Part shown: positions 8,748 through 49,167 of the stretch, piece by piece
Layout: every line of letters starts with the position of its first letter
How positions within the stretch are numbered: position 1 is the stretch's first letter
Assembly (NCBI GenBank): GCA_965140765.1
Contig: OZ223309.1
Span: 1,003,470 to 1,067,469 of the forward strand
DNA length: 64,000 nucleotides
Direction: 5' to 3'
Source of the DNA: an uncultured Sunxiuqinia sp.
Lineage (GTDB): Bacteria; Bacteroidota; Bacteroidia; Bacteroidales; Prolixibacteraceae
The notes under the pieces: model-generated
What the model saw: only the letters and a program-made list of their open reading frames with translations
Told to the model about the DNA's origin: nothing
The model's database searches: none
Program-made: the position numbers and the translations under genes

Positions 8748-8881
8748 GGGAAATAAATTGAATGTAGCGCAAGTATTTTTATGAAAATGTGTCTTACTAA
8801 CAAATATTAAAATAAACATTTGATTAAAATTAAATCACAACAGGCCTGTGAGAACAATCAATAATTTTAAAAAATAAAGAG

Positions 8882-16176: not shown

Positions 16177-16252
16177 GACTCAGTAGCTCAGCTGGTAGAG
16201 CACATCCCTTTTAAGGATGGGGTCCTGGGTTCGAACCCCAGCTGAGTCACCA
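16177..16252 (+). tRNA. tRNA-Lys (anticodon TTT)
   Basis: Acceptor stem GACTCAG/CTGAGTC, anticodon arm CATCC-CTTTTAA-GGATG, GGTTCGAACC T-loop, encoded CCA; 76 nt. Confidence 0.97.
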
Positions 16253-16404: not shown

Positions 16405-16528
16405 GTAGTTTAACTTGCTGATAATTAACATTTAGATTGAGTTGTTTTGGTCTGTTTTGATGTTTTCAAATTGCCCGGTAATGGGTAATTTTGAAAAAGG
16501 AACGAGACCATTTTTTTTCGAACAAAAA

Positions 16529-33211: not shown

Positions 33212-33249
33212 TGCTCGATAAGTGATTGTTTTTCTATTTACATGATAAG

Positions 33250-34131
33250 ATGGTTGTTGTGAGTTTTGTCACATTTAAATACATAATAGAGCAAGTAAAC
33301 AACAATTTGCAAAAGTTACAGAGTGATGGAGACGACGAGATTCTAAAAGCAGAAAAAGCAATTGGGATTTGCTCGGTTGCTCTATTGGAATTACGTGAAT
33401 ATGTCTATCATTCGGACTTTAAAAACAAGGAAGAAGAAATCCATTTTTTTAAGGTAATAAAACCTTTTGTGCTCGGGGAATATTTGTACTACTCGAAGCT
33501 TTGGGAGATTTTAATCCGACAATCGGTAACTTCCATTCGAAGAAGGAAAAGACATTTAAGACGCATGATTGCAGAGGCTCAAAATTTTTTTAATGACAAT
33601 TACGAATTTTATCTATACTACCATAGCGGTTCTATCCAACTGGACGACAAGTATTTTACCCGCACGGAAATGAATTGTCCGCTGAATTGCCAGCACTTTA
33701 TCTTTGATCCCTACTTTTCCACCAGCCATGATTATACCCTGGCAGCCATAAAGGCTAATGAAAAAATTGCCGCATATTGCAATATCGAAATCAACCAGTT
33801 AAAAAACAAAGGAAATAACAGGGGGATCAGGACAGATATGTTTTGGTGCCTGGATAAACGGGATTTGATGCAAATTATTTATGGCATTTATTATACAGAT
33901 GCCGTTAATAAGGGAGATATTCATATTAAAGAACTAGTTAAGGGATTTGAATCCTTGTTCAATATCCGTTTATCCGGGTACTATCATACTTTCTACGAAA
34001 TTACCCAATTAAAGAAAGAGCCGCTGGCCTACCTGAATTTAATGAAGGAAACACTGGAAAAACTGCTGGAAGAGTCGGTCGAAAATAAGAGGAGAAAAAG
34101 AAGAAGCAAAAATAATAACATAAAAACCTAA
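33250..34131 (+). CDS. rteC: RteC-domain regulator
   Basis: FFKVIKP N-region and C-terminal W..DK.DL.QIIY...KG...IKEL..GFE.LFNI....YYHTF.EI pattern of RteC proteins; start 33226 (TTG) or 33250 (ATG). Confidence 0.85.
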   Translation: MVVVSFVTFKYIIEQVNNNLQKLQSDGDDEILKAEKAIGICSVALLELREYVYHSDFKNKEEEIHFFKVIKPFVLGEYLYYSKLWEILIRQSVTSIRRRKRHLRRMIAEAQNFFNDNYEFYLYYHSGSIQLDDKYFTRTEMNCPLNCQHFIFDPYFSTSHDYTLAAIKANEKIAAYCNIEINQLKNKGNNRGIRTDMFWCLDKRDLMQIIYGIYYTDAVNKGDIHIKELVKGFESLFNIRLSGYYHTFYEITQLKKEPLAYLNLMKETLEKLLEESVENKRRKRRSKNNNIKT

Positions 34132-34361: not shown

Positions 34362-34634
34362 ATGAAAAAATACCTGACTGACAAGAATATCCAGAATGCC
34401 GATTTAATCGCTGTCTTTCAGCGTTGTCCTTTTGGTAAAACTACTGATGATTGCCTTTTTCTCCCCTATCATCGGTTAAATGATATAGAAGAACAAATCC
34501 GGCAACTAAATGCCCTTGATGAAGATACCCTCCAGCAACTCCGTTCCTTTCACCGTTCGTGTATTATTATAAGAAGAAGTCAAATGGCACCAAACAAGGC
34601 CAATTCAGATGAGTTAGCCGCTAATACTTTCTGA
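34362..34634 (+). CDS. Small hypothetical protein
   Basis: 90 aa, ATG after an A/T-rich leader, RCPF...DC and FHRSC motifs. Confidence 0.65.
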   Translation: MKKYLTDKNIQNADLIAVFQRCPFGKTTDDCLFLPYHRLNDIEEQIRQLNALDEDTLQQLRSFHRSCIIIRRSQMAPNKANSDELAANTF

Positions 34635-34702
34635 TCTTTTCTACTTCAAAACGATTTCTGCTAGGATTATGTTGATATGCAGCTTTTTGTAAAGAAATAA
34701 CT

Positions 34703-34729
34703 CAGAAAAAATACCACACTGTGGTATTT
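34703..34729. promoter_or_regulatory. Palindromic operator box, copy 1 (upstream of excisionase operon)
   Basis: CAGAAAAAATACCACACTGTGGTATTT; core AAATACCAC-ACT-GTGGTATTT; near-identical copy at 37094. Confidence 0.75.
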
Positions 34730-34791
34730 TTTATTTTTGGGAAGCGCACTTTTGGCAAAACTCAAATTACATCAATAAAAAGTAAAAAGTT

Positions 34792-35088
34792 ATGCCGACA
34801 GAAATTGTAACAACCGACGATTTGCGAGAATTCAAAATTGAATTGCTCAAAGAAATCAAACAAATGCTGGCTGCCCATCATGGTCAACCGTTCAAAAAAT
34901 GGTTAAAGTCATATGAAGTAAGAAAACTGTTGGGAATCTCACCAGGGACACTACAAAACTTAAGGATAAACGGGACTTTGCCTTTCACTAAAGTTGGTGG
35001 GGTAATTTTTTATGACAGTGAAGACATTCGCAAAATGATGAAAGAAAACCTGGTGCAGAACCGCTTTGAATTCCGCCGTGGCAGATGA
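34792..35088 (+). CDS. xis: Helix-turn-helix excisionase-like protein
   Basis: IVTTDDLREFK, WLKSYEVRKLLGISPGTLQNLRING.LPF.KVGG..FY (HTH_17 type). Confidence 0.85.
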   Translation: MPTEIVTTDDLREFKIELLKEIKQMLAAHHGQPFKKWLKSYEVRKLLGISPGTLQNLRINGTLPFTKVGGVIFYDSEDIRKMMKENLVQNRFEFRRGR

Positions 35089-35564
35089 ATTACATCAGGC
35101 ACCAAACCGGTTTATTTGAACGGTTTGCGGAAGATGAACGAATCAGTCCATTTCATATCAGTCTTTACTTTGCCCTGTTCCAGTTCTGGAACAGGAACCG
35201 TTTTCGAAACCCGTTCCCGGTATCCAGGGAAGAGCTTATGTTCCTTTCCCATATCGGGTCGGTAAACACCTATACAAGATGTATAAAAGAACTACACCAG
35301 TGGGGGTATATAGAATATTTTCCATCATTTAATCCGAATACCGGGAGTAAAGTCACCTGTATCAGTTTTGATAAAGGTAGTGATAAAGCTGGCAGTAAGG
35401 CTGATGATAATGCTGCTGATAAAGCTTTATATAAGAATACAAACTTTACAAACGGGATAAAACAGGCCCATTACCAAAATTTAAAAAATGGAAGAGAAAA
35501 GGAAAAGCGGAACAACAACCCGCTCCATGTCGAAAACGATAAGGACTACTCGGAACCCTTATAG
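35085..35564 (+). CDS. Winged-helix protein, replication-initiator-like
   Basis: HISLYFALFQFWN...REELM..S.IGS..TY..CIKELHQWGYIEY N-domain, then a low-complexity repeat linker; overlaps xis and the ATPase. Confidence 0.65.
   Translation: MNYIRHQTGLFERFAEDERISPFHISLYFALFQFWNRNRFRNPFPVSREELMFLSHIGSVNTYTRCIKELHQWGYIEYFPSFNPNTGSKVTCISFDKGSDKAGSKADDNAADKALYKNTNFTNGIKQAHYQNLKNGREKEKRNNNPLHVENDKDYSEPL
35369..35428 (+). repeat. Five 12-bp imperfect tandem repeats inside the initiator-like gene
   Basis: TGATAAAGGTAG TGATAAAGCTGG CAGTAAGGCTGA TGATAATGCTGC TGATAAAGCTTT. Confidence 0.7.
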
Positions 35565-36213
35565 CGACATAGCAGAACTCAAAAACGGGATGTACCTGTT
35601 TGATTTTTCCCTGTGCCGGAAGTGGATGGAGGATGTGGGAAAACAGCAATACGGAGTACATTTCAGGCTTTACCCGGAAGATTACAGGGTAATTTACAGC
35701 TTGCTGGTTTATGCCATTGAAGATAAAAAAGAGTCAGCAAAGCTTAACCTGGATATTAAGAAGGGGATCCTCCTGGCCGGGCCAATCGGTGCGGGAAAAT
35801 CTACTTTAATGGCGTTAATAAAATACTTTTTACAACCTGGCAAACGATACCAAATCAAAAGCACCCGCGACATTACTTTTGAATTTGAAAATGAAGGATA
35901 CAAAGTGATTAACCGCTATAGTAAAAACCCGTTAAACCTGAGTTACACCAACCCGCTTCCGAATATCTTCTGTTTTGACGATTTGGGTGTTGAACAAACC
36001 CAAAAACATTTTGGCAACGAATGTAATGTTATGGCGGAAATCCTGCTCAGCCGTTACGATTTGTTTATCTCCAAAGGAATACCGACACACTTAACAACTA
36101 ATCTTTCGGCCTCCGAAATCGAAGAGAAATATGGCAACCGTGTCCGTAGTAGAATGAGAGAGATGTTTAACCTGGTTGCTTTTGACAAAAACGCACAGGA
36201 CAAAAGAAGCTGA
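35527..36213 (+). CDS. DnaC/IstB-like P-loop ATPase
   Basis: Walker A GPIGAGKS, Walker B FCFDDLG, HLTTNL...EKYGNRVRSRMREM; start 35488 or 35527. Confidence 0.8.
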   Translation: MSKTIRTTRNPYSDIAELKNGMYLFDFSLCRKWMEDVGKQQYGVHFRLYPEDYRVIYSLLVYAIEDKKESAKLNLDIKKGILLAGPIGAGKSTLMALIKYFLQPGKRYQIKSTRDITFEFENEGYKVINRYSKNPLNLSYTNPLPNIFCFDDLGVEQTQKHFGNECNVMAEILLSRYDLFISKGIPTHLTTNLSASEIEEKYGNRVRSRMREMFNLVAFDKNAQDKRS

Positions 36214-37093
36214 ATAGACAATTATTTCAGCTAATCCGGTGCACAGGCCGTTCCCCCGGTTTTGGGAACACGACTGCTCATGATTCACAGAATTTTCGTG
36301 TCCCTTTTGAGTACCGGTATGAACAGCCTTTCGCACCGCGCGGCAAGAGCCGGGACTCCGGTTCACTTTGCTCACCCCAAACAGTAAATCTCATTACGCC
36401 TGTCCCGGATTTTCTTTCCTCATACAGTCTATCACGGCAAAAATCCGAAAACCAGGCTTTATTCCGCCTTCCCTCAATTCGCTTCGTTTCCCTTTATCTC
36501 CCGGCACTTCCCCTTTGCCTGCCTTAAAAAAGGTTTTACTGGTTGTTCTCCAACGCCCCGGCACATTCCCCTAACCGGCTCCAATGCTCCCTGGACCCGT
36601 TCGCACACTCACGGAGTACGGTCGCTGTTTCTCGCCGTCACGGGGAAAGAGCTTCCGGGCTTCCCACGGCAAAAGCCGCCCCTCCATTGCCTTACAGGGC
36701 TGCATTTGCCTTTAGCCCGCCCGCATTAAAATAATAACAGGTAGCAATCCTGGTTATCTCAAAAACCAAAAAAGAAATCCAAAGTTAGCCACTCTGCCCA
36801 TGAGCCGACACACCTTGAAAATGCAAGGCCAGGGCAAGTGGCGCGGTATAACAGGTTTAAAGTTTAATGCAAAAACTTTAAAGGTTCCGCACCAGTCCTG
36901 CATTTGCGCCCCGCGTGGCTCCGTTTCGAATTTCTTTTCTTTTTTGAGGGTTTTTCTGTTCTTTTTGAAAATAAGGATGTGTTTAAATCCAATCAAATTG
37001 AACCAAAGGCTATGGCCGCTTTGCTTATTAAAAGCCGACAAACAGAAATGTGTTTTTAAGTAGTTGGTATGGTGTGTTTTATTGATTTCACTT

Positions 37094-37120
37094 CAGAAAA
37101 AACACCACACTGTGGTATTT
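37094..37120. promoter_or_regulatory. Palindromic operator box, copy 2 (upstream of tra operon)
   Basis: CAGAAAAAACACCACACTGTGGTATTT; 26 of 27 bases identical to 34703-34729. Confidence 0.75.
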
Positions 37121-37169
37121 CCCGTTTTTGCGCTTTAGACCTTTGCCCCGGTAACAAAAAACACAAGTT

Positions 37170-37532
37170 ATGTTTGGAATCAACGAAGTCACCTGGGGTG
37201 AATTTACAGCGTTTATCCTGTTTGTTTTGATGGCCTGGTACGGTTTACTGCTAATCCTTGGCTGGATAAAGTCAAAGCAGGGAAACGGACATGAGAGTTA
37301 TGAAGAATACCAGTCCGGCATTACCTCCTGTGAAACCTTACAGCCGATCGTCGTTTCATCACAGGATTATCCATCGGAAATCCTGCCGGTCAACCCTGTT
37401 GAAAATATATCCTTACCGGCTTCACTATATGAAGAAACCGGTTATGACGAAGGTCTGACCATTGACCATTTTGCAGAAAGGAACAGCCCGGTACTGGCTA
37501 AAATGCTTCCTGAAATCCATTATCAACAATAA
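37170..37532 (+). CDS. First gene of tra operon, membrane-anchored hypothetical
   Basis: N-terminal TM helix and acidic tail; directly upstream of traE. Confidence 0.65.
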   Translation: MFGINEVTWGEFTAFILFVLMAWYGLLLILGWIKSKQGNGHESYEEYQSGITSCETLQPIVVSSQDYPSEILPVNPVENISLPASLYEETGYDEGLTIDHFAERNSPVLAKMLPEIHYQQ

Positions 37533-37550
37533 TTACTAAAAATCAAAATC

Positions 37551-37865
37551 ATGAGAAAAAAGATTCAAACGGTTTATCAGAAAAGTGTGGCATTTACTGC
37601 CTTAACAGTCTTTGGGGTTTACAGCAGTTTTGCGCAAAGCTCAGCCGGTATTGACCAGGCTACATCCGAGGTCAGCAGTTACATTGACCCCGTGGCCAAC
37701 CTGATCATTGCCATTGGTGCTGTGGTCGGGCTGATTGGGGGAGTCCGCGTTTACATCAAATGGCAAAGCGGTGACCAGGACACTCAAAAAGCTATTATGG
37801 GCTGGTTTGGCGCCTGCCTGTTTTTGGTTCTTGTGGGAGTTGTAGTACGTGCATTCTTTTCCTAA
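37551..37865 (+). CDS. traE: TraE-like pilin/VirB2 (DUF4134)
   Basis: AGIDQAT..V..Y.DP...AIGAVVGLIGGVRVY.KW..GD.D..K..W.GACLFL. Confidence 0.85.
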   Translation: MRKKIQTVYQKSVAFTALTVFGVYSSFAQSSAGIDQATSEVSSYIDPVANLIIAIGAVVGLIGGVRVYIKWQSGDQDTQKAIMGWFGACLFLVLVGVVVRAFFS

Positions 37866-37876
37866 CAATAGAAAAG

Positions 37877-38170
37877 ATGAAAACTTACACCATCCGGAAA
37901 ATCGATACGAACCTTTACATCAAAGGATTCTCGGGGCAACTGGTCTATTCAGCCCTGTATGGCATTATTGCTGCTTTGCTGCTGTTTGTGCTGCTTTATA
38001 TCCTTATCGGAGCCTTTATTGCGGTTATGGTTTGCGTCCCCCTGTTTTTTGCTTACCTGTACCGCCTGAATAGAATCCAGAAGAAATACGGCCACGCGGG
38101 TTGGGGCAAAAAGAAAATTGCCCGGCAGCTTCCTGAATTTGTCACCATTAAAAAACGGTTTTTGCGATGA
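37877..38170 (+). CDS. traF: TraF-like VirB3 (DUF4133)
   Basis: IKGFSGQ..Y followed by two TM helices and KKYG..G; overlaps traG start. Confidence 0.75.
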   Translation: MKTYTIRKIDTNLYIKGFSGQLVYSALYGIIAALLLFVLLYILIGAFIAVMVCVPLFFAYLYRLNRIQKKYGHAGWGKKKIARQLPEFVTIKKRFLR

Positions 38171-40584
38171 AAGTAAAACCCATAGAAAAGAGCTTGCCCC
38201 TACTAGGCTTTAATGGCAATACCGTAGTTTCGAATAACCTCGATATGGGGTTCGGATTAAGGCTCGAACTGCCCGAGCTGCTATCTAACAGCACGGAACA
38301 GTTGTATAGGTTACATGATACTTTTCAACGGGCGGTAAACCTGTTGCCTGGAAACACCCTGCTCCATAAACAAGATTTCTTTTCTGTGGAACATTTTGAG
38401 GGAAGCAATAAAACTTCAAAAAAGAGGTATCGGGATAGCCTGAATCGGTATTACATGCAACATTTTAACGGGCGATCTTACCTGAAACAGGAATGCTACC
38501 TGTATATCAGTTTGCTAAATGTAGGATTACTAAAAAATTATCTTGGTTCATCCCTGCTGTTTTCCCGCAAACAGAAATTGCAGGAAATAAAAATGAACGG
38601 GAAAATAAACGAGCTGCGTTCCAACCTGGTTTCGGTTTTCGGGCAAAGCGGGATAAAGACAAGGCCGGTTGCACAGGAAGAAGTCATTGGAAATGATGGT
38701 ACAACAGGACTGATTGAGCGGTATTTAACCCTTAATTTCAGGGGAGGTCAGCCATTGCTGGGAGGGATAGACTTCAGGGACAGGCTCCGGGTGATGGACC
38801 GCTTTGTGGAAATCCTTAGTTTAAGCGATTTTTCGCATTTGCCAACAGAAGTAAGGCCAACAAGCGGCCATCCCCAAACCAGCCTCCCAGTTTCCCTGGT
38901 GTACCCGGTGACCTACCACCTGCCGTTTTCACATATAACTAACCAGTTTATCTATGTCCCGACGCAACAGAAAGTAAAAGCCGGATTGGAAAGCAACCAT
39001 AAGAAGATCTACAGCCTGTCTAAATTTTCTTCTGAGAATAAGGTCAATGCAGGGCTGATTGAAGATTTTCTGGATACGGTACAGGTTTCAGGGGAGAAAA
39101 TCGTCAAAACCCATTTTAATGTAATGCTTTTTGACGAATCCATTTCTGAACTGAAAAAATACAAAAGCGAAACCGCCTCGGCCTTTTCGCTAATGAATTG
39201 CTTTCCTTACCAGCACTCCTTTGATTTGCCCCTGTTGTTTTTTGCCTGTGTGCCTTTTTCAACCCAATTACCGGAAACGGAACTGTTTACCACCCAAGTT
39301 CCGCAAGCCTGTTGCCTGACCAATTTTGAAGGAGAAGTGCAAAATTCTAAGTCTAATTTCTTTATCAACCTTTCCAACCGGCAGGAAGGTTGCCCGGTAA
39401 AAATTGATCTTTCAGATGAGCCGATGCAAAAGCACCTGATCCATAACCGGAACAAAATCATTATCGGCGGTTCCGGATCCGGAAAATCCTTTTTTACCAA
39501 TCATCTGTTGAGGCAATATGCAGAGAGCGGAAACTGTCATATCGTTTTACTTGACGTTGGCCGTAGCTATGAAATCCTGACCCGCTATCTGGATGAGAAG
39601 CTAAAAGATAAGGGCGGGGCAAAGCTGATCGAATTTTCCGAGACGAATCCTATCTCATTTAACCCCTTTGTAGTAGACGGGGAGCCGGATATCGAAAAAA
39701 AACAAACCATCCTGTCGGTCATTTATACCATTTACAAAGAGAACCTGACAGAAATGGAAAAGGATGTGATTGCCTTTTCAGTGAACCGCTACTTTGAAAC
39801 CAACATTAAAAAGAAACGATGCTTTAACAGCTATTATGAGTTCTGCAAAGAAATTATTCCCCGCTTGGCCAAAGACGAATCCATAGAGTTTAACAGCAAC
39901 GAATTTTTCTTTATCCTCAGTAAATACTATAAAGGTGGTGAATATGATTACCTGCTGAACAAGCCCATGAACACCGATGAGTTTTTTGCCTGTCCGTTTC
40001 TTGTTTTTGAACTGGATTCGATAAAAGACCACCCGGTAATTTTTCCTGTGGCCACACTGATCATTATGGATATTTTCCTGCAAAAGATGCGCAGGCTGAA
40101 GCGGGTCAGAAAGGTAGTCTGTCTGGAAGAAGCCTGGAAAGCCATTGCGACCCCTCAAATGGCAGGGTTTATCAAGTATTTTTTCAAGACCATACGCAAA
40201 TTCTTTGGTGAGGCTATGGTAGTTACCCAGGAGGTGGACGATGTAATCTCATCACCCATAATCAGGGATGCCATTATCAACAATGCCGATACAAGGATAT
40301 TGCTGGACATGAACAAATTCAAAAACAAGTTTGATGAAATCAGCCGCTTCCTGGGCCTGAATGAATTCCAGAAGGAACAAATCCTGTCCATCAACAAAAA
40401 TCTTCCATCTGACCGGAAGTTCAAGGAAGTATTTATCTCCCTGGGGGAATACTCCCGTGTTTTTGCCCTGGAAGTCAGTAAGCCTGAGTATTTCTGCTAC
40501 ACCACCGAACAAAAGGAAAAAGAAGAAATCCTTGGCCGGCTGAACAAGGAAAAATCCGTACTGGAAGTACTTAGAACCATTTAA
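38167..40584 (+). CDS. traG: TraG VirB4-family conjugative ATPase
   Basis: LHKQDFF, NRNKIIIGGSGSGKSFFTN, LEEAWKAI, RKFFGEAMVVTQE. Confidence 0.93.
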   Translation: MKVKPIEKSLPLLGFNGNTVVSNNLDMGFGLRLELPELLSNSTEQLYRLHDTFQRAVNLLPGNTLLHKQDFFSVEHFEGSNKTSKKRYRDSLNRYYMQHFNGRSYLKQECYLYISLLNVGLLKNYLGSSLLFSRKQKLQEIKMNGKINELRSNLVSVFGQSGIKTRPVAQEEVIGNDGTTGLIERYLTLNFRGGQPLLGGIDFRDRLRVMDRFVEILSLSDFSHLPTEVRPTSGHPQTSLPVSLVYPVTYHLPFSHITNQFIYVPTQQKVKAGLESNHKKIYSLSKFSSENKVNAGLIEDFLDTVQVSGEKIVKTHFNVMLFDESISELKKYKSETASAFSLMNCFPYQHSFDLPLLFFACVPFSTQLPETELFTTQVPQACCLTNFEGEVQNSKSNFFINLSNRQEGCPVKIDLSDEPMQKHLIHNRNKIIIGGSGSGKSFFTNHLLRQYAESGNCHIVLLDVGRSYEILTRYLDEKLKDKGGAKLIEFSETNPISFNPFVVDGEPDIEKKQTILSVIYTIYKENLTEMEKDVIAFSVNRYFETNIKKKRCFNSYYEFCKEIIPRLAKDESIEFNSNEFFFILSKYYKGGEYDYLLNKPMNTDEFFACPFLVFELDSIKDHPVIFPVATLIIMDIFLQKMRRLKRVRKVVCLEEAWKAIATPQMAGFIKYFFKTIRKFFGEAMVVTQEVDDVISSPIIRDAIINNADTRILLDMNKFKNKFDEISRFLGLNEFQKEQILSINKNLPSDRKFKEVFISLGEYSRVFALEVSKPEYFCYTTEQKEKEEILGRLNKEKSVLEVLRTI

Positions 40585-40634
40585 CCGAATGGTATTCTAT
40601 GTACTAAATACTCACTACTAATAATCTTATAAAA

Positions 40635-41285
40635 ATGAAAACAACAATTAAAATTCTGGTGATCCTCCTGATACTCTCGGGAACCTGCCTGACGCAATTA
40701 AAAGCCCAAACACCTGTAACGGATGTGGGGGCAGGAATCCAGCGCGAAGCCCTCTGGGTGGAAGAAGAAGGGATCCTTTCAAAAATCAACCTGTACAATG
40801 TCCTGATCAAAGCACTGAACGGCGATATCAAGGGCCTTACAGGTGAAATCCTGGGCATTGATGAGAAAATGCTGGAAAGCCTGGAGAAAGTTTCCAACCT
40901 GATCAAGGACTACAAACGGGTGCAGGAAACCCGCGAAATCCTTGGAAGGGTGATCGATATTTATACTGAAAAAGTTCCCTTGTTGGTACAGGACGAAAAT
41001 TTTACTGCTCAGCAGGCTGTAGCTATTGTCCAATCCTTTGACCTGGTACTGGAAGACAGCAAACAAATGGTCAACACGGTTCTGAATACCATCCTAGAAG
41101 ACAACCTGTTTATGATGGACGACAAACAACGCTATGACACGATTAACGAAATTTACCTGGGGGTAAAGCAGCACTACGGCACCATTTGCTACCTGTACAA
41201 CAAAATTATGTATGCATCCTACCTGAAAAGCCACGAATCGGGCGACCTGGAAAGTTTTGCTATGTATTACAGCCTCTATAAATAA
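40635..41285 (+). CDS. Exported conjugation protein, TraI-like
   Basis: Signal peptide, AQTPVTD, LEKVS..IKDY..V, M.DKQRY..I pattern; position after traG. Confidence 0.65.
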   Translation: MKTTIKILVILLILSGTCLTQLKAQTPVTDVGAGIQREALWVEEEGILSKINLYNVLIKALNGDIKGLTGEILGIDEKMLESLEKVSNLIKDYKRVQETREILGRVIDIYTEKVPLLVQDENFTAQQAVAIVQSFDLVLEDSKQMVNTVLNTILEDNLFMMDDKQRYDTINEIYLGVKQHYGTICYLYNKIMYASYLKSHESGDLESFAMYYSLYK

Positions 41286-41310
41286 CGGGAAAATGAAAAA
41301 GTCAAATATC

Positions 41311-42015
41311 ATGAAACGAATATTGATAATAGCAGCTTCAATTATCCTGATTAGTTCCGTACATACAAAAGCCCAGTTGCTTGAGATCAAGCCCTGGCAC
41401 GGAAGCTATCCTGAAATGGGAGACAGCTATCCGCTGACGTTTATTGCTTTTAAAGGTTGGCTGATACCCGTTCCTCACGTTTTTGTACGTACCTGGCCCA
41501 CCCATTACTACATTGAAGCGGACGCCATGCCGGTAACCGATGCCACGGAAATCAGCGGGACTACTGTAACTGGTTTATTGCGGATTGTTGCAAAAATGCT
41601 GGAGCGCCATCAGATGGAAGGACGGCATAATGAAACGGTTCAGATTAGAGATAACACTGACCTCCAAAAACAGATCGGGGAAAAAATATTCAACGCAAGG
41701 ACAGACCAGTTGGAAGACCTGTTCGGTCTGGCGCAACGCTTTATCGGACTATACAGCAAGATAGACAGGATCGGTGATTTGCCAAATTCTACAGAAGTAA
41801 AGGAGATTTTCGAGGAAGAAGCCGACTGCCAGTTGATGCATTTTCTGATGGTCAACCTGTTGGAGACCGGCCATGGTGAAAAGCTCGAAGCCTATTCTGA
41901 AATCAATACTACCCTTAATAAACTGCAGGGGGAAGTGGACTATACATATTCCAAAATCCGCTATTTCAGCAATTATAATGCAGAGATTACCAGCTACTCA
42001 TTTTTAACCCGATAA
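41311..42015 (+). CDS. Exported tra-region protein
   Basis: Signal peptide MKRILIIAASIILISSVHTKAQ; between traI-like gene and traJ. Confidence 0.65.
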   Translation: MKRILIIAASIILISSVHTKAQLLEIKPWHGSYPEMGDSYPLTFIAFKGWLIPVPHVFVRTWPTHYYIEADAMPVTDATEISGTTVTGLLRIVAKMLERHQMEGRHNETVQIRDNTDLQKQIGEKIFNARTDQLEDLFGLAQRFIGLYSKIDRIGDLPNSTEVKEIFEEEADCQLMHFLMVNLLETGHGEKLEAYSEINTTLNKLQGEVDYTYSKIRYFSNYNAEITSYSFLTR

Positions 42016-42025
42016 AGAGAAAACA

Positions 42026-42976
42026 ATGTTATTGCAAGTATTAAGTACCAACGATTTTTTCAGTTTTACCGATTTCCTGATAATGCAGGGGGTAAACCAT
42101 GCCCGTGTGCTGGTGGATTTGGCAAGGGCTGTTGGCGGGATAGCTGCTTTCTTTTATATCTCGAAACGGATCTTCGAGCAACTGATTGCCGATAACCCGG
42201 TTTCCATACTGCCACTTCTCAGGCCTTTTGCCCTGGTATTGGTCATCACGTTCTGGGGGCTGTTTGTGAACCTCTTACTGGCTCCGACCAAAGGGCTGAC
42301 CGAACTTTCGGAGGCCGTCTATGTGGATAAAAAGCACATCGTAAAAGAGAAACTGGAAGAAAAGCAGCAGGCTATCCTGGCTACCGATTTGCCCCTGTTT
42401 TATGAAAATGAAGAAAAGGAGGCAGCCCTTTGGGACAAAGGGGTCAACCTGCTGTTGACAACTTACAACATTATAAGCGGGCGGGCCATTCAGAACCAGA
42501 TTAATTTTTATCTGATGGACGCTGTCCGTCAGGTACTGGAATCCCTTTTTGAAGTGCTGGTTTATCTGATCGCTTTTTTGCGGACAGTATTTTGTGTGCT
42601 ATTGGTCATATTTGGGCCGCTGGTTTTTGCCCTTTCCATTTTTGATGGTTTCCAGGACAATTACCTGCAATGGATCGCCCGGTTTGTAAATGTAAATCTC
42701 TACCTGCCCATTGCTTTGCTTATCCTTTCCATCGTTCAGGAAATCCTGATTTATGTGCTGGATCTGGAAATCGCCCAAATCAATGCTATGCTGGTTTACC
42801 AGCCTAAACTGTTTTTTGTCTCCAACCTGGTTGTCCCGGTTTGCGGAATTGTGGGTTTAGCGATGACTCCGAAAATTGCATCCTGGATTATTTCGGCATC
42901 AGGCACGAGGTCGGGAGGAGGCAGACTAGTTCGCACTGCAGCGGTTATGGCCGTTACCAAAGGCGCTATGAAATAA
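42026..42976 (+). CDS. traJ: TraJ VirB6-like membrane protein
   Basis: LARAVGGIAAFFY, LLRPF, IFGPLVFALSIF.GF......WIARF..V.LYLPI. Confidence 0.88.
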   Translation: MLLQVLSTNDFFSFTDFLIMQGVNHARVLVDLARAVGGIAAFFYISKRIFEQLIADNPVSILPLLRPFALVLVITFWGLFVNLLLAPTKGLTELSEAVYVDKKHIVKEKLEEKQQAILATDLPLFYENEEKEAALWDKGVNLLLTTYNIISGRAIQNQINFYLMDAVRQVLESLFEVLVYLIAFLRTVFCVLLVIFGPLVFALSIFDGFQDNYLQWIARFVNVNLYLPIALLILSIVQEILIYVLDLEIAQINAMLVYQPKLFFVSNLVVPVCGIVGLAMTPKIASWIISASGTRSGGGRLVRTAAVMAVTKGAMK

Positions 42977-43040
42977 CATTAATAAAGTTGATGCGAGGTC
43001 AAAAACCGTCTTGGTTCTTGTGTCTTGAATCTAAAAAAAA

Positions 43041-43667
43041 ATGAAAAAAATATTTGACATCCAGCGAAAATTCCGTTTTACGGTCTATGTGTTATTGATA
43101 ATCAGTGTTACGCTGATTGGGGTAAGCACCTATGTGTTTACGCTATCTGCCGGGATGGTGGAATTATCCAAACAGAAAATCTATGTGTTGGATAATGGGA
43201 AATCCCTGCTGGTGGCTCTACGGGAAGACATCTCTGAAAACCGTACTGCCGAAGCCCGTGACCAGGTAAAACGGTTTCATGAATTATTTTTTACCCTCGA
43301 ACCGGATAAAGAATACATCGAAAACAATGTGCGGGAGGCTCTCTATTTGGCAGACCGTTCAGCGATGGAACAATATCAGGCCTTCAAGGAGAGCAACCTG
43401 TATAACCAGGTGATTGCCTCGGATATCAGTATGACCCTACAAACCGATTCCATCAGCCTGGATTTTTCCACCTATCCCTACCTGTTTACTTACCGGGGAA
43501 AACAAAAGATTGTACGAAAGTCCAATGTCACCGTTCGAAACCTTGAAACAACGGGGTTCTTACGCAATATCTCGCGCACGGACAACAATCCTCACGGTTT
43601 CCTGATGGAAAACTGGCGCATTGTGGAAAATAATGACATCGAAACGATCCGGCGCAAATCCTTTTAA
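43041..43667 (+). CDS. traK: TraK VirB8-like protein
   Basis: IYVLDNGKS, EARDQVKRFHELFFTL.PD, RTDNNPHGFL.E.W. Confidence 0.92.
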   Translation: MKKIFDIQRKFRFTVYVLLIISVTLIGVSTYVFTLSAGMVELSKQKIYVLDNGKSLLVALREDISENRTAEARDQVKRFHELFFTLEPDKEYIENNVREALYLADRSAMEQYQAFKESNLYNQVIASDISMTLQTDSISLDFSTYPYLFTYRGKQKIVRKSNVTVRNLETTGFLRNISRTDNNPHGFLMENWRIVENNDIETIRRKSF

Positions 43668-43675
43668 GCTGCACT

Positions 43676-44011
43676 ATGATGAAAAAAGAAAATACAAATC
43701 AAAACCTGAAAGATGTCAGCCGCTTTACCCGGTGGGTGAACGATTTGGACACAAAGGATCAATCGCTGACACCCCGGCGAAGGAAAAGGAGGTGGATACT
43801 CATAACAGGTGGGATTTTTATCCTGTTTTTACTGTCTTTCCTGCTTTTCCCGTCAGCGAACCCCGGTTCTTCAAGAATTTCCTCACCTGAAGTAGGAATA
43901 GAAAAACAAAGCAAGGAACCGGCCGCTCAATCTGCCTTTGATTTACCGGTCGATTCATTTGAAAACCATTTAAAAAGTGTCATCTATGAAGAACTATCTG
44001 AAAAAGAATAA
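43676..44011 (+). CDS. Small membrane protein at the TraL position
   Basis: Single TM helix; between traK and traM. Confidence 0.6.
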   Translation: MMKKENTNQNLKDVSRFTRWVNDLDTKDQSLTPRRRKRRWILITGGIFILFLLSFLLFPSANPGSSRISSPEVGIEKQSKEPAAQSAFDLPVDSFENHLKSVIYEELSEKE

Positions 44012-45128
44012 AGGGCTGTTTCTACTGCCCCTGGGATTAATCCCTTTCCTGGTCCTTATTTTTTATGTGTTGGGCGGAGGGAAAGAAAATGAACAGGTTC
44101 AGCAGCAAAAAGCACAAGCCACCGACGGGGCAAACTATGTATTGCCTGAAGCTGAACAATCCATCGGGATACTGGATAAGATGGAAGCCTACCAGCAGCA
44201 GGCTACCAGAAATGAAACGTTAAATGCCGGTATGAGAGAAAGGGATTCAACAATATTCGCAGGACAAAATCCGGCGGATTCTACAAAAGTTGAATTATCC
44301 CTGTTGGCGCAACAAAACCCAAAGCTGCCTGAAAACTTGCTGGCCCATATCAGACAAAAAGAACAGGAAGCCAAAAAAGAGCTGACGGAACCGGAAAGGA
44401 GAGTGAGCAGGCCTGTTCCCCAAAAGCAATACACAGGTTCCCCTACAAAAAGGCAAAATCCCAAACCCGAAAAGGAACCGGTAAAACAAACCACCGGTAT
44501 TGAGGAACTGGATAAGGTTTTTGACGAGAACAGGACATTGAGCCGTCAAAACGACTCATTGAAGTTTTACCTGCAACAAAGTCAAAACAGGTTGGCAAAA
44601 ATTGAAAAGCTTCAAAATGCAAGTTTCTCGCTTGATAAAAAAGCCGGGACGGATTTCAATCAAACGGAAGAAACAAATAACCTTATCAAAGCAGAGATTT
44701 ATGAAACTACCACGGTACTTGATGGCAACAGGGTAAAGCTCCGTTTGCTGGAAGATACCCGGATAAATGGTAAGGAAGTCCCGAAAAACACATTTATATA
44801 CGGTATCTGCAAAGTTAAAAACGAACGGCTGCACATTGAAATCAGCCGGATGCCGGTCGATGAAGGTTTTCTTCCGGTAAAACTTGCCATCCATGATCTG
44901 GACGGGATGTCTGGCCTCTATGTCTCGGACAACGTTGCACGGAAAGTAACAAAGGAAGTCGGGGGCAGTACCAATACCTCTTCGCTTTTTGGAATGACAG
45001 ACGATCCCCTGACCTATGCAGGGGTTCGCGCTGCCGACCGTACCACACAAATCCTTTTAAAAAGGGTACGCCTGAAAAAGGTAACCGTCCGGAAAAACAC
45101 AATTGTATATCTCATCAATCAAAACTAA
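43986..45128 (+). CDS. traM: TraM VirB10-like protein
   Basis: N-terminal TM, KAEIYET.TV.DG.RVKLRLL, D.DGMSGLYV C-terminal domain. Confidence 0.9.
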   Translation: MKNYLKKNKGLFLLPLGLIPFLVLIFYVLGGGKENEQVQQQKAQATDGANYVLPEAEQSIGILDKMEAYQQQATRNETLNAGMRERDSTIFAGQNPADSTKVELSLLAQQNPKLPENLLAHIRQKEQEAKKELTEPERRVSRPVPQKQYTGSPTKRQNPKPEKEPVKQTTGIEELDKVFDENRTLSRQNDSLKFYLQQSQNRLAKIEKLQNASFSLDKKAGTDFNQTEETNNLIKAEIYETTTVLDGNRVKLRLLEDTRINGKEVPKNTFIYGICKVKNERLHIEISRMPVDEGFLPVKLAIHDLDGMSGLYVSDNVARKVTKEVGGSTNTSSLFGMTDDPLTYAGVRAADRTTQILLKRVRLKKVTVRKNTIVYLINQN

Positions 45129-45133
45129 ATACC

Positions 45134-45937
45134 ATGAAACAATTCATTTTTATCTTGCCCTTTTTGTTTTTCTTTTCAATAGCAGGCAAAGCACAAGACC
45201 GGATTGAGGTCTGCGAAAATAAGGCAATCCACATTATCAGCAATGAAAAAATAACCTACCTGCAGGTAGGTGACCACAACAAAATCATGGCTGAGATTGT
45301 CCCTGAACATCCGAACCTGGTCCGGGTAAAAGCCGTGAAAAACTTCGAAGGCGAATCATCGCTAACCCTTGTAAGCGCAGGTAAAGTCTATTCCCTTTTC
45401 GTAGAATATACCGATACAGATAAGCTATCCTGGCAGTTGGACGATTTTCATTCCCTTAAAAACGGGAACCTGGCAGGCGGAAGAATCCCTGAATATTTGC
45501 TCCGGGAAATCAGTTATCAAATCCTTTCCCAAAATAAGAAGCACATTAAAAAACGGAAGGAGAAGAAAGACGGGATAAAAATCCGGCTGACCAACATTTA
45601 TTTGAAAAACGACCTCCTTTTCTTTGAACTGGAAATCACCAACCAGACCAACCTGGGGTATGAAGTGGAAGGTTTTCACTGGTGGATTGGCGATAAAAGG
45701 CAGTACAAAGCCACTAATGTCCAGGAATACCCGGTTGAACCTGAATACCAGCATTACAACATCAGGAACATTCCCGCCGGAACAAAGCTCCGTGAAGTAT
45801 TTGTATTGCCCAAATTTACGATTCCTGACAAGCGGATACTAACCATTGAAATGCTTGAAAAAGCATTGGGTAATACGGGGAGGAAACTTAGCCTTGAGAT
45901 AAAAAACAGGGATATTTTTCAAGCCAGGACATTCTAA
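45134..45937 (+). CDS. traN: TraN VirB9-like protein (DUF4138)
   Basis: Signal peptide, NLVRVKA, L.NIY...D.LFF.LEI.N, F.LPKFTIPD...L.IEM.EK..GR. Confidence 0.88.
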   Translation: MKQFIFILPFLFFFSIAGKAQDRIEVCENKAIHIISNEKITYLQVGDHNKIMAEIVPEHPNLVRVKAVKNFEGESSLTLVSAGKVYSLFVEYTDTDKLSWQLDDFHSLKNGNLAGGRIPEYLLREISYQILSQNKKHIKKRKEKKDGIKIRLTNIYLKNDLLFFELEITNQTNLGYEVEGFHWWIGDKRQYKATNVQEYPVEPEYQHYNIRNIPAGTKLREVFVLPKFTIPDKRILTIEMLEKALGNTGRKLSLEIKNRDIFQARTF

Positions 45938-45955
45938 CCTTTCAATTTTCGAGAA

Positions 45956-47872
45956 ATGTTGAACGAATCACCGGAATTAAGAAAACTGCACGAAGGTTTC
46001 CGATTTTTCAGTTACCTGTTGCTATTGCTGACCCTGTATATCAACCAAATCCGGTTTTTTGCCAGGAAAGGCCTTTATATTTTGGAGTTTACCGCGGTAA
46101 CCGAAAAGATAACCCACATCCGTTTTCTTGGAGATACTATTCTGGCAAAAGCCGTTTGCCTGGCTTTCCTGGCGATTACCTGCATCGGCACCAAGGCGAA
46201 AAAAGACCGCAATTTAAAGGTTTCTGAAATTGTCATCCAGGTAATTATTGGTTCTGCCCTTTACTGGGGAAGCCTTTTGGTTTTTAAAACGGCAACGGTT
46301 TATTTGCTGCTTTCCTTTTTCGGGTTTGTCATCCTGAATATCGGCTTTGACAATATCTCCAAACTCATTAATGTCAACCTGATGAAAGACCGTTTCAACC
46401 TGGAGAACGAAAGCTTTCCGCAGGAACAGAACTTAAAGGAAAACGAATTCTCCGTTAATCTTGCGACACAGTTTCAATACAAGAACAAAACACATTCCGG
46501 TTATATTAACATCATCAACCCGTTTCGGGGAACTATGGTCATCGGAACTCCCGGCTCAGGGAAATCCTATTCGGTGGTATTGCCTTTTATCAAACAACAT
46601 CTTTCAAAAGGGTTTTCGATGTGTGTCTATGACTTTAAATACCCGGACTTATCCGATATTGTTTACAATTATTTTTTGAAAGCCAGAAAGAAGAAAGTGT
46701 TGCCGGAGCAGGCCCGGTTTTACGTGATCAATTTTGACGATATCCGGAAATCCTACCGTTGCAACCCTTTGGCCCCGGAACTAATGGAAAGCCCTATCGA
46801 TGCCTTTGAATCATCCCGGACGGTATTGTATAATCTAAATCGGGAATGGATACGCAAACAGGGCGAGTTTTTTTCCGAATCAGCCGTGTCCTTTTTTGCA
46901 GCCATCATCTGGTTCCTGAAAAAATACCGTGACGGGGAGTATTGCACTTTACCTCATGCCATTGAACTGCTGCAACTGGAATACGATGATTTGTTTACTA
47001 TCCTTTCCAAAGAAAAGGATGTGGAAAACATTGTCAACCCTTTTATCAATGCACATAAACGCGGGGCTAATGAGCAACTGGAAGGGCAATTGGGAAGCCT
47101 GAAGGTTGCTATCTCAAAGATTATCAGCAAAGAAATTTACTGGATTTGTTCCGGGAATGACTTTTCGCTTGACATTAATAATCCAAAACGGCCAAAAGTT
47201 TTGTGTCTGGCCAATAACCCGCTCCGAATAGAAATGTATGGAGCCGTTCTATCTCTGTTTATTACCCGGATGCTGAAAATCATGAACCGGAAAGGACAGC
47301 ATAAAGTATCGCTGATTTTTGACGAGCTGCCGACCATTTATTTCCGCGGCTTGGACACTTTAATTGCAACAGCGCGGAGCAATAAGATATCTACATTGGT
47401 AGGTCTCCAGACCATTGACCAGCTTATCCGGGATTACGGAAAGGAACAGGCCAATGCCATTCTGACCAACATCGGGAATGTTTTTGCCGGGCAGTCATTA
47501 GGCGAAACCGCTAAATTTATCCAGAACAGGATGGGGAAAATCCTACAGGAACGGCAATCCGTTAACATTAACCGCAATATGCAGTCATCCACTTTCTCTA
47601 CCCAAATGGATTTTCTGGTACCGGAAGGTAAAATTGCGACACTTCCCCAAGGATATATGGTCGGTCAGGTGACCGATAACTTTGGACAGCAAGTCAGTCA
47701 ACGCAACTTCAATTGCCTGATTGACGTAGAGCTGAGAGCTATTGAACGGGAAGAAAAGAAATACCAATCTATTCCCACTATTTACCGCTTTGACAATATC
47801 AATGATGTACTTGAAAATAACCGGAATCAAATCTGCAATGATATTGTCCGCATCCTGAGAAATACCACATAA
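45956..47872 (+). CDS. Type IV coupling protein (VirD4/TraG-TraD family)
   Basis: TM region, INPFRGT..IGTPGSGKS, YDFKYPDL, FDELPTIY, ATARSNK. Confidence 0.9.
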   Translation: MLNESPELRKLHEGFRFFSYLLLLLTLYINQIRFFARKGLYILEFTAVTEKITHIRFLGDTILAKAVCLAFLAITCIGTKAKKDRNLKVSEIVIQVIIGSALYWGSLLVFKTATVYLLLSFFGFVILNIGFDNISKLINVNLMKDRFNLENESFPQEQNLKENEFSVNLATQFQYKNKTHSGYINIINPFRGTMVIGTPGSGKSYSVVLPFIKQHLSKGFSMCVYDFKYPDLSDIVYNYFLKARKKKVLPEQARFYVINFDDIRKSYRCNPLAPELMESPIDAFESSRTVLYNLNREWIRKQGEFFSESAVSFFAAIIWFLKKYRDGEYCTLPHAIELLQLEYDDLFTILSKEKDVENIVNPFINAHKRGANEQLEGQLGSLKVAISKIISKEIYWICSGNDFSLDINNPKRPKVLCLANNPLRIEMYGAVLSLFITRMLKIMNRKGQHKVSLIFDELPTIYFRGLDTLIATARSNKISTLVGLQTIDQLIRDYGKEQANAILTNIGNVFAGQSLGETAKFIQNRMGKILQERQSVNINRNMQSSTFSTQMDFLVPEGKIATLPQGYMVGQVTDNFGQQVSQRNFNCLIDVELRAIEREEKKYQSIPTIYRFDNINDVLENNRNQICNDIVRILRNTT

Positions 47873-47920
47873 TCCCTCACAATAATCAACAAGAATTAAT
47901 CACTAATAATATAAAACGAC

Positions 47921-48589
47921 ATGGAACAAAGTACCCGCATTAAAAAAGATGAAATCCCCTTTGACAAACTGGAAAAAGTTGGGGTAAAAAAAGATTTTAT
48001 CGACCGTATGGATGAAAACGAACTGAGAGATTTTCTAAACGGTTACCGCTCTCAAAAACTTTATACTATCAACGCTACCGTGAACGATGAGCAGCTCCGT
48101 ATCCCGGCAAAACTCCGCTTGCAAAAACAGGATAACGGCGAAGTGGATGTGAAAATCCATCCAATACAACGGTTGTATGTTCCCGATGAATATATGAACC
48201 ATAAGTTTACCAAAGAAGAAAAGGCTACATTGCTGAATGACAAGAATCTGGGAAAAACTATCGAATTAACCGGGAAAGATGGCAAAAAGGACAATTATTA
48301 CCTGGCAATTGATAACAAAACCAATGAACTCATTCCACTCAGAACAAAAAATATCAAAGTACCTGACAAAATAAAAGGGGCAACTCTTTCAGCAGAACAA
48401 AAGCAAAAACTGGCTGCCGGTAAAAAAGTTTACCTCGATAAAATGACCGGAAGAAACGGAAAAAAGTTTGGGGCATCGCTCCAGGTGGATGCAGCCAACC
48501 GGACGATTAATTTCTCTGGTTTCAAGCAGGAAAAAGACCTGGATAAGAAACAGGCTAAGGGTAAAGGTGCAAAACAAAAAGTAGGGTAA
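47921..48589 (+). CDS. DUF3945/DUF4099-like ICE protein
   Basis: IPFDKLEKVG, FTKEEK..L....NLGK, IKGA.LS.EQK..L..G repeats. Confidence 0.7.
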   Translation: MEQSTRIKKDEIPFDKLEKVGVKKDFIDRMDENELRDFLNGYRSQKLYTINATVNDEQLRIPAKLRLQKQDNGEVDVKIHPIQRLYVPDEYMNHKFTKEEKATLLNDKNLGKTIELTGKDGKKDNYYLAIDNKTNELIPLRTKNIKVPDKIKGATLSAEQKQKLAAGKKVYLDKMTGRNGKKFGASLQVDAANRTINFSGFKQEKDLDKKQAKGKGAKQKVG

Positions 48590-48639
48590 TTCCCTGACCT
48601 GAATTAACCTTAGAAGTCAGTAGAAAACAACTTAGGGGG

Positions 48640-48715
48640 AGGGGATTGCAAGATGTGTTTTTATGGCCATAAAAACCTTTCACCTTGTCCCGGCACGCCG
48701 GGAGACATTCCCCAT
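48640..48715. other. Putative oriT
   Basis: GCAAGATGT followed by the 20-bp perfect palindrome GTTTTTATGGCCATAAAAAC (48657-48676) and TCCCGGC/GCCGGGA (48688-48703), immediately upstream of the mobilisation and relaxase genes. Confidence 0.65.
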
Positions 48716-48768
48716 TAATTGAATGCATTCCCCTCTGAAAAGGAAGAAAGTTACCAGAAAATTAATCC

Positions 48769-49137
48769 ATGCGCCCCAGATTGAAAGATAAAGAGAAACG
48801 AAAAATAGTCGTCAAGCTATTGATGAACCGCGAAGAAAGGATCAGGTTGGATTCATTGGTCAAACGGGGAAAGTTTGGTTGTACCAGTGATTTTTTAAGA
48901 GTTAAAATATTTGAAGAGTCCAGAAGGAAAACGATCTCTCTGGACGAAGAGGCCAACAGCCAGTTGAAGAGTTTGGATTATGAGTTGAACAAGATTGGGG
49001 TGAACCTGAACCAACTTTCCAAGCGCATGAACTCGTTTGCGGGGTACCGGATGGGCGACAATGACCGGCAGCTACTTAAAAAGGCTTTTGATCAAATGAG
49101 GAACTGCTTGATATTGCTTCAAAGGCACCTCCACTGA
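48769..49137 (+). CDS. Relaxosome accessory ribbon-helix-helix mobilisation protein (MobA/MobC type)
   Basis: RPRL..KEKR...V.L, SDFLR, ELNKIGVNLNQL.K.MN. Confidence 0.85.
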   Translation: MRPRLKDKEKRKIVVKLLMNREERIRLDSLVKRGKFGCTSDFLRVKIFEESRRKTISLDEEANSQLKSLDYELNKIGVNLNQLSKRMNSFAGYRMGDNDRQLLKKAFDQMRNCLILLQRHLH

Positions 49138-49167
49138 CTCTTCCATGAACCAAAAATCCCAAAGACA

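Follow-up and report, generated by a model that had tools for sequence, protein, structure and literature searches.

A palindromic box shared by the excision-type and transfer promoters of an integrated conjugative element in Sunxiuqinia, with RteC as its candidate reader

The conjugative element and its gene content

The DNA described here (the window) is a stretch of 64,000 nt from contig OZ223309.1 of an uncultured Sunxiuqinia sp. (GCA_965140765.1; positions 1,003,470–1,067,469 of the forward strand), and all window positions are counted from its first letter. It contains an integrated conjugative element, the features of which are listed in Table 1, and within this element one palindromic box stands before two operons, the first opening with an excision-type gene (xis2c-like) and the second running from orf120 and traE to the relaxase gene. 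The protein most likely to read the box is the product of the element's own rteC gene, and the evidence for this comes mainly from a comparison of related elements in which the box and RteC vary together.

The rteC gene starts just 15 nt past the glycoside hydrolase (GH)-like open reading frame (ORF) that closes the cargo region, a set of genes resembling a polysaccharide utilisation locus (PUL), and there is no rteA/rteB pair in the element. The transfer array is co-oriented throughout its length downstream of box 2, with the mob genes at its 3' end, and its products carry the domains DUF4134, DUF4133, TraG P-loop, TraJ, TraK, TraM, DUF4138, T4SS-DNA_transf, MobC_2 and Relaxase. For the ATPase encoded between the two boxes, the NCBIfam matches (PRK08116, DnaI, DnaC-like) are all below the cut-offs. 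Homologues of orf90, which lies between rteC and box 1, occur in elements with box types A and B and in some of type C (the types are described below).

Table 1. Features of the conjugative element, in window positions (ECF, extracytoplasmic function; HTH, helix-turn-helix).
Feature	Position	Strand	Remarks
Tyrosine integrase	16442–17740		adjoins tRNA (16177–16249)
PUL-like cargo	ECF sigma factor 17972; FecR 18623; GH2 24898; GH43 27401		follows the integrase
rteC	33226..34131	+	candidate activator, 301 aa, intact open frame; Pfam RteC PF09357, E 4.9e-53
orf90	34362..34634	+	small Cys-rich ORF between rteC and box 1, 90 aa; no Pfam or NCBIfam match
Box 1	34703..34729	+	palindrome 34709–34729, centre C34719
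Perfect TAnnTTTG, TATTTTTG	34732..34739	+	abuts box 1 and contains the TTTG at 34736; read from the sequence
-7-like element of the xis-type promoter, CACTTTTG	34747..34754	+	nAnnTTTG
xis2c-like gene	34792..35088	+	98 aa, HTH_17, PF12728, E 2.6e-9; weak excisionase-domain match
orf159	35085..35564	+	no family match
P-loop ATPase gene	35488..36213	+	resembles DnaC/DnaI helicase loaders; weak AAA matches
Conserved non-coding gap	36214..37093	.	880 nt, upstream of box 2
Box 2	37094..37120	+	palindrome 37100–37120, centre C37110
-7-like element of the tra-type promoter, GACCTTTG	37138..37145	+	nAnnTTTG; before orf120
Transfer/mobilisation array	37170..50082	+	orf120, traE, traF, traG, ..., traJ, traK, traM, traN-like, coupling protein, MobC-like, relaxase

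The two copies of the box

The first-pass annotation of this DNA described a 27 nt box, CAGAAAAAAYACCACACTGTGGTATTT, that occurs twice, and both copies were found at the positions given for them (34703–34729 and 37094–37120). They lie on the same strand and differ at one base (T34712 versus C37103), and the number of such matches expected in shuffles of the window was 0.00. Similarity between the two sites reaches 38 nt at 87% identity (34702–34739 versus 37093–37130), while the core of the box is a 21 nt palindrome, AAATACCACA-C-TGTGGTATTT, without mismatch in copy 1 and with a single mismatched position between its arms in copy 2.

A search of the whole genome (5,154,845 bases) with the 17 nt core AYACCACACTGTGGTAT returned only two occurrences, and these are the two boxes. 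Within the window, no further credible site was found for the 13 nt palindrome with up to two mismatches. An exact match to the box was absent from 400 other genomes of the order, of which 14 contain singletons with one mismatch, a rate near that of the reversed control (about 9 genomes), and a scan of viral contigs found no box of the window's type (type A). The box is non-random and under selection. A partial third copy (GAAAAAATACCTGACTG, 34364–34380), found at the start codon of orf90, lacks the right arm and was treated as a chance occurrence.

Promoter geometry

The primary sigma factor of Bacteroidota reads promoters with a TAnnTTTG element near -7, to which some species add a TTTG near -33, and the criterion used here for this class (sigma-ABfr) was a -7 TAnnTTTG with an optional -33 TTTG about 19–21 nt upstream of it. 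After each box there is a TTTG word (34736, 37127) followed by an nAnnTTTG word (34747–34754, 37138–37145), all at the positions first noted. The nAnnTTTG word is present and conserved at both promoters, and because it ends 36–37 nt before the ATG of the xis2c-like gene in nearly all related loci, CACTTTTG is the likely -7 element of the xis-type promoter. Counting G34754 as -7 places the box at about -58 to -32, its centre at about -42 and the palindrome itself at about -52 to -32. A distance of 35 nt separates the palindrome centre from the G of the downstream -7 element in both copies, and the expected starts of transcription are near 34761 and 37152. Neither promoter has a TTTG at the true -33 position, because the right arm of the box occupies it.

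The TTTG that begins 7 nt past the box had been proposed as a -33 element, but the 7 nt between it and the -7 element are too few for it to serve as one. Nor is it conserved, as relatives in public runs vary in this region at 34735, 34738, 34739, 37129 and 37130. The perfect TAnnTTTG that abuts box 1 is also not conserved, being TGTTTTTG in the related locus L018, without a counterpart in L017 (both described below), and CGTTTTTG at box 2. Among public RNA runs, none was found to contain the window stretch, the maximum share of its sampled words in any run being 0.46.

Close relatives with the same box

A scan with RteC found two elements with gene order identical to that of the window, one in Mariniphaga anaerophila (L017, RteC 67% identity) and the other in a Draconibacterium metagenome-assembled genome (L018, 72%). 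Conservation of position in related elements had been set beforehand as a condition for the proposal, and the box was found at both promoters in L017, in L018 and in contigs of four runs. The distance from the end of the box (GGTATTT) to the G of the -7 element is exactly 25 nt in all six of the type-A promoters (window, L017 and L018). The invariant columns are the A6 run, CACA.TGTGGTATTT and A..TTTG, and the flanks have diverged.

The run contigs, which represent three further organisms and a salt-marsh metagenome, are about 92–98% identical to the window over both promoter stretches. Their only changes within the 21 nt palindrome are a central C>G (X3) and a left-arm C>A at 37105 (X1 and X2); in the A-tract upstream of the palindrome there is a G>A at 37096 (X3 and X6). 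No change affects the right arm or either -7 element in the contigs of the four runs, and GACCTTTG is also kept in L017 and L018. Box 1 of L018 has a left-arm change (C>G) that is uncompensated. Since the right arm, TGTGGTATTT, never varies among these close relatives while the left arm carries uncompensated changes, the promoter-proximal arm is the most constrained part of the box. The central base is either C or G, and this freedom is as would be expected of a symmetric protein site.

Two other differences were seen among these elements. Both L017 (13150–14439, - strand) and L018 (13089–14378, - strand) have an opposite-strand ORF of 429 aa between the ATPase gene and the conserved gap; it has only a weak match to outer membrane protein beta-barrels and is absent from the window. 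Inside orf159 of the window (35369–35426) there are imperfect repeats of the TGATAAAGCT type, spaced at 12 and 24 nt and encoding a (G/S)DKA-rich stretch, and run X1 has one additional 24 nt unit in this stretch.

Box types in the wider family

Seven rteC loci were fetched from genomes of the same family, four of which (L035, L036, L038 and L039) share the gene order of the window, and 80 metagenome loci were kept from 531 confirmed relatives in a scan with an alignment of Xis2c-like proteins. About 40 loci contain the full array from rteC to traG. The gene order of the family is rteC, xis2c-like, orf159, DnaC-like ATPase, the conserved non-coding gap and orf120-traE-F-G, and orf159 of the window corresponds to the N-terminal part of longer proteins, with homologues of 337–383 aa in L035, L036 and L039.

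The elements differ in their box, yet the xis and tra promoters of one element carry a common box, although exceptions exist. Five types were distinguished. Type A, AAAACACC-ACAsTGTGGTATTT with the core ACCACAsTGTGGT, is found in the window, L017 and L018, whereas type B, AAAACACCTnACCTGACAA with the core CCTGACCTGACAA, is a direct repeat. The majority type is C (AAAACACCCAAsTTGGG-N5-CTTGKG), and the remaining two are D (CCCACGTGGG..AGGTGGG) and E (CCyAGTAGGG..CATGGGG). The prefix AAAACACC is common to the family, and TTAACnATA is found further upstream in most types. For the majority of family members, the region of the box extends from about -75 to -37.

When the two promoters of each locus were compared in register over -68 to -32, they were at least 60% identical in 23 of 38 loci, and several further loci match after a shift of 1–2 nt or of one helical turn. 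In the cross-type control, median promoter identity was 0.44 and the 95th percentile 0.67. One box common to xis-type and tra-type promoters, as first proposed for the window, is a design seen across the family.

The candidate reader of the box

The rteC gene is directly upstream and on the same strand in 52 of the 59 loci with enough sequence, and box types sort into RteC clades. An AlphaFold2 model of RteC (predicted local distance difference test score, pLDDT, 86) has an N-terminal helical bundle and C-terminal helices at residues 211–223, 234–245, 252–261 and 268–299. Modelled alone, residues 200–291 (pLDDT 91.5) contain no strands and fold into three helices plus a long helix at the C-terminus. 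The helix at 252–261 (helix 3) and the loop after it have sequences specific to the box type: YHTFYEITQLKK in type A (with the loop, YYHTFYEITQLKK-EPLAYL), YRYYxEIxQRKI in type B, YRTFxEIRxRKK-DRTKF in type C and YxTQxxLxxR-DPVKYL in type D. The HTH of the Xis2c-like protein, ISPGTLQNxRxNGTLPxTK, is near-invariant across types A, B, C and E.

Distances between boxes at the xis promoter were correlated with protein distances. The C-terminus of RteC gave r 0.61 (0.61–0.67 across analyses), as did helix 3 plus the loop alone (r 0.61). The values for the RteC N-terminus (0.33), the full Xis2c-like protein (0.36), its HTH (0.21), orf159 (0.36), the ATPase (0.34), TraG (0.20) and TraE (0.04) were lower, and partial r with the xis-promoter box was 0.57–0.66 for RteC and 0.09–0.24 for the other proteins. 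Linkage does not explain the RteC signal, because DNA that lies nearer to the box correlates less with it than RteC does: for the spacer, the leader, the xis2c DNA and its third codon positions (0–370 nt from the box, with the 3' end of rteC at a median of 610 nt), r was 0.31–0.43, and the partial r of RteC was 0.60–0.66.

At the tra promoter, the type of box was best predicted by RteC, with an area under the curve (AUC) of 0.75–0.90, compared with 0.66–0.71 for Xis2c, 0.63–0.66 for orf159 and 0.54–0.60 for TraE; these values are rough, as typing was motif-based and three loci (L062, L084 and L101) were mis-typed through a stray CCTGACA. The tra proteins of L017 are as distant from those of the window as are those of elements with other box types (TraG 73% versus 72%, orf120 39% versus 40%), and despite this divergence its tra promoter is of type A, so it is the regulatory module, rather than the tra genes, that the box accompanies. 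Covariation with the C-terminal domain and prediction of the tra box agree with the first proposal in pointing to RteC as the best candidate.

Some loci depart from the usual arrangement around rteC. In L108, L111 and L082, the xis promoter is near-identical to that of the rteC-bearing locus L110, and rteC is replaced by a gene of 235–249 aa (MEQLKSFS...) and a small ORF. Three rteC loci (L034, L037 and L040) are without the xis2c-like and tra genes of this family; L034 has an unrelated 94 aa HTH gene downstream of rteC, and L037 and L040 are truncated.

Comparison with CTnDOT and other systems

In CTnDOT, RteB activates rteC, and RteC then binds upstream of the excision promoter PE to activate xis2c-xis2d-orf3-exc. 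Xis2c and Xis2d then act from upstream of the tra promoter, where they bind, and with the excision genes expressed RteC is no longer needed, so that activation of tra is indirect, as had been stated at the outset. The window resembles the PE region in having a PF09357 rteC gene upstream of an operon that opens with a small HTH excision-type gene, and in having an element-specific site ahead of a promoter of the Bacteroidota -7 type. It differs in that the site also precedes the transfer operon, in lacking rteA and rteB, with rteC following PUL-like cargo, and in having orf159 and a DnaC-like ATPase gene instead of xis2d, orf3 and exc. As no topoisomerase is encoded in the excision operon of the window, exc is absent, and no Xis2d is recognisable there, the second gene being without a family match (no direct sequence comparison with Xis2d or Exc was made). 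The RteC of the window belongs to a diverged clade that is about 30% identical even to other clades of the environmental family.

The transfer genes of the window, like those of CTnDOT, appear to be tied in their expression to the excision regulatory module. In CTnDOT, however, tra starts at traA (ParA-like) and is divergent from mobABC, with the origin of transfer (oriT) between them, while in the window tra starts at orf120-traE, the genes for the coupling protein, MobC-like protein and relaxase are co-oriented at the 3' end, and the tra promoter carries the box of the xis promoter. A CTnDOT-like arrangement is present in a gut element of Parabacteroides distasonis (L121, NZ_OY725747), with AraC, RteC, an HTH gene, primase/helicase, and mobABC divergent from traA. 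Its xis promoter (8779–8884) is of the same design as that of the window, consisting of TTTAAC, an A/T-rich stretch and a two-part box, GCCACAGGTGG-N5-GCCTGTGGCG, followed by 28 nt to the G of GAACTTTG. From the end of the proximal TGTGG to the -7 G there are 30 nt, the same register as in the window. No second copy of this box was found in the 174 kb NZ_OY725747 record, including the mob-tra intergenic region and the sequence before traA. The window family differs from CTnDOT in wiring, not in kind.

Two further comparisons can be drawn. At class II activator-dependent promoters of the CRP/FNR type, the activator site is centred near -41.5, and in the window a palindrome suited to a presumed dimer is likewise found about 42 nt upstream of the inferred start, replacing the upstream promoter element; the differences are the Bacteroidota sigma factor and promoter grammar (-7 TAnnTTTG) and the unrelated fold of the regulator. 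SetCD boxes (SXT/R391) and AcaCD boxes (IncC plasmids) are examples of one element-encoded activator with the same box before several excision and transfer operons. SetCD and AcaCD are FlhCD-like heteromers in Proteobacteria, whereas the candidate in the window is a single protein, RteC, with only two sites in the genome.

Regulatory model and alternatives

From these sequence comparisons, the box is probably the operator of the element's own RteC, placed before the xis2c-like operon and the orf120-traE-...-relaxase operon so that both come under its direct control. Once RteC is made, a dimer would bind both operators, with the promoter-proximal arm TGTGGTATTT sitting where a -33 element would be in promoters that have no correctly spaced -33 TTTG. 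Bound RteC would recruit RNA polymerase in a class II-like architecture, centred about 42 nt upstream of the start, and the genes for excision/replication and for transfer would be switched on directly and together. In this scheme we infer the binding of RteC, activation rather than repression, and the position of the start site. What stands of the original proposal is one box at both promoters, with RteC as its best candidate reader; the assignment of a -33 TTTG does not.

Several observations count against this model. A site that overlaps the -33 position would suit a repressor too, and the centre of the box, at about -42, is nearer than the site described for CTnDOT, which is given as 50–70 nt upstream of the promoter (from an uncertain reference point). 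Seven of the 59 loci keep the box without rteC within reach. The type-C box is common to RteC clades that are just 30–40% identical, and one subclade (L071, L073, L098, L104 and L106) has RteC and a normal type-C xis box with no recognisable box before orf120, the tra promoters retaining only the upstream A/T-rich part. L044 (Ga0207831_100105) is a mosaic, with a type-B-like xis box and a type-C tra box, and is a natural mismatch between regulator and tra operator; its RteC falls in the type-B clade, its xis gene is at 8001 and orf120 at about 12116, the xis promoter reads CCCCAAGCTGACAA..TTGATAACA and the tra box CCCAAGTTGGGAATACCTTGTG. The Mantel test on the tra-promoter box alone does not separate RteC from the other proteins. 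Finally, a Foldseek search of the RteC C-terminal domain against the PDB gave nothing at E<1, so the winged-helix assignment in the literature was not reproduced; the top non-significant matches include the winged-helix proteins RTP and FOXM1. Searches of the PDB with the whole-chain fold found no significant match, and those with the sequence found no match.

An alternative is a CTnDOT-like scheme in which the reader would be encoded by the operon that follows the box (as the Xis2c-like protein, orf159 or orf90), giving positive autoregulation of the excision operon and indirect activation of tra, with RteC acting elsewhere or only starting the loop. In its favour, the tra-promoter Mantel test does not single out RteC, seven loci retain the box without an adjacent rteC, and Xis2c and Xis2d of CTnDOT do bind upstream of the tra promoter and activate it. 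We nevertheless regard this scheme as unlikely. The Xis2c-like HTH hardly changes among elements with entirely different boxes, orf159 of the window is just 53% identical to that of L017, which shares its box, a value no higher than between box types (partial r 0.15), and orf90 is missing from many box-bearing loci. Upstream of the xis promoter, moreover, no other conserved element-specific motif remains for RteC to bind.

The box could instead be the operator of a dimeric repressor, or of RteC acting negatively, over the -33 region, silencing excision and transfer until relieved. Conjugative elements are typically silent by default, and here the palindrome (about -52 to -32) reaches into the core promoter region; the perfect TAnnTTTG at 34732–34739 also abuts box 1, which would then be centred near -27 of that alternative promoter. 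This TAnnTTTG is, however, specific to the window and mutated in its relatives, no repressor-type gene is conserved in the module, and RteC of CTnDOT is an activator. Activation is favoured by the typical activator position of the box region, about -37 to -75, in most family members, and by the lack of a usable -33 element at both promoters, as would fit activator dependence; repression is accordingly improbable, if less so for type A, where the site lies over the -33 position.

Least probable is that the boxes are RNA or DNA hairpins that end transcripts, one from rteC-orf90 at box 1 and one from the conserved non-coding region at box 2. Each box is at the end of an upstream unit, and box 1 is terminator-like, with a 12 bp stem, a T-run, -14.5 kcal/mol and z -4.4. 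The fold of box 2, in contrast, is no better than that of shuffled sequences (z -0.43), box 1 of L018 has z +0.71, and a terminator would have no need of a fixed 25 nt spacing to the -7 element. A stable hairpin with a T-run, its pairing kept in relatives, is the mark of an intrinsic terminator, and the hairpin and T-run hold for box 1 of the window only. As box 2, box 1 of L018 and the type-B boxes, which are direct repeats at the same position and unable to pair, are all without such a fold, and as the arm changes (C>G in L018; C>A at 37105 in X1 and X2) are uncompensated, pairing is not the conserved property; what is conserved is sequence, with invariance confined to the right arm. In this element, box 1 may have a second role in stopping read-through from rteC-orf90.

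Returning to RteC as the reader, what is known of the control of conjugative elements in Bacteroidota comes almost entirely from CTnDOT, in which RteC acts only on the excision operon and activation of the transfer genes is indirect; the same operator before both operons would be a simpler and direct wiring. No description of a shared RteC operator was found in a literature search that excluded the primary RteC paper (Park and Salyers 2011). The wiring appears to be widespread in marine, sediment and other environmental metagenomes (531 relatives in one scan). A broader scenario, which we put forward tentatively as possible rather than probable, is that environmental Bacteroidota elements replaced the CTnDOT cascade with a minimal regulon in which RteC alone fires both promoters, that RteC and its operator co-diversified into at least five specificity classes via one C-terminal helix, and that the cargo substrate could signal transfer. 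With such classes, co-resident elements would not cross-activate, and the substrate could be the signal because of the place of rteC at the end of a glycan-utilisation locus. Expression of rteC may respond to glycan sensing. The matched variants of RteC helix 3 and the box form a natural specificity table that could supply orthogonal inducible promoters for Bacteroidota genetics, and two sites with one protein would offer a handle on when elements with glycan-utilisation cargo move.

The conserved non-coding gap

The gap between the ATPase gene and the tra promoter is 580–1093 nt long in about 30 of 40 loci and 1.7–3.7 kb in the other ten. Its core (36692–37013) is 67–86% identical in diverged elements and contains nested, near-invariant inverted repeats, TCAAAAAnCCAAAAAAGAAA...TTTCTTTTCTTTTTTGA and AAAATGCAAGGCC...GCCyTGCATTTT. 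Compensatory changes were seen in 18 of the 55 predicted pairs of the core. No Rfam match at E<=1 was found in the gap, and nothing in the region reached a gathering score. The gap is a candidate oriT, single-strand element or RteR-like RNA.

A unit of about 150 nt from the gap (about 36558–36710 in the window) recurs in other elements, with three copies in L041 (1721–2397) and three in L046, where one is upstream of xis (2159–2313) and the others are before tra (4218–4364 and 4482–4764). In L037 and L040, a GC-rich structured stretch with a similar AATAACAGGTA word is found between rteC and orf90.

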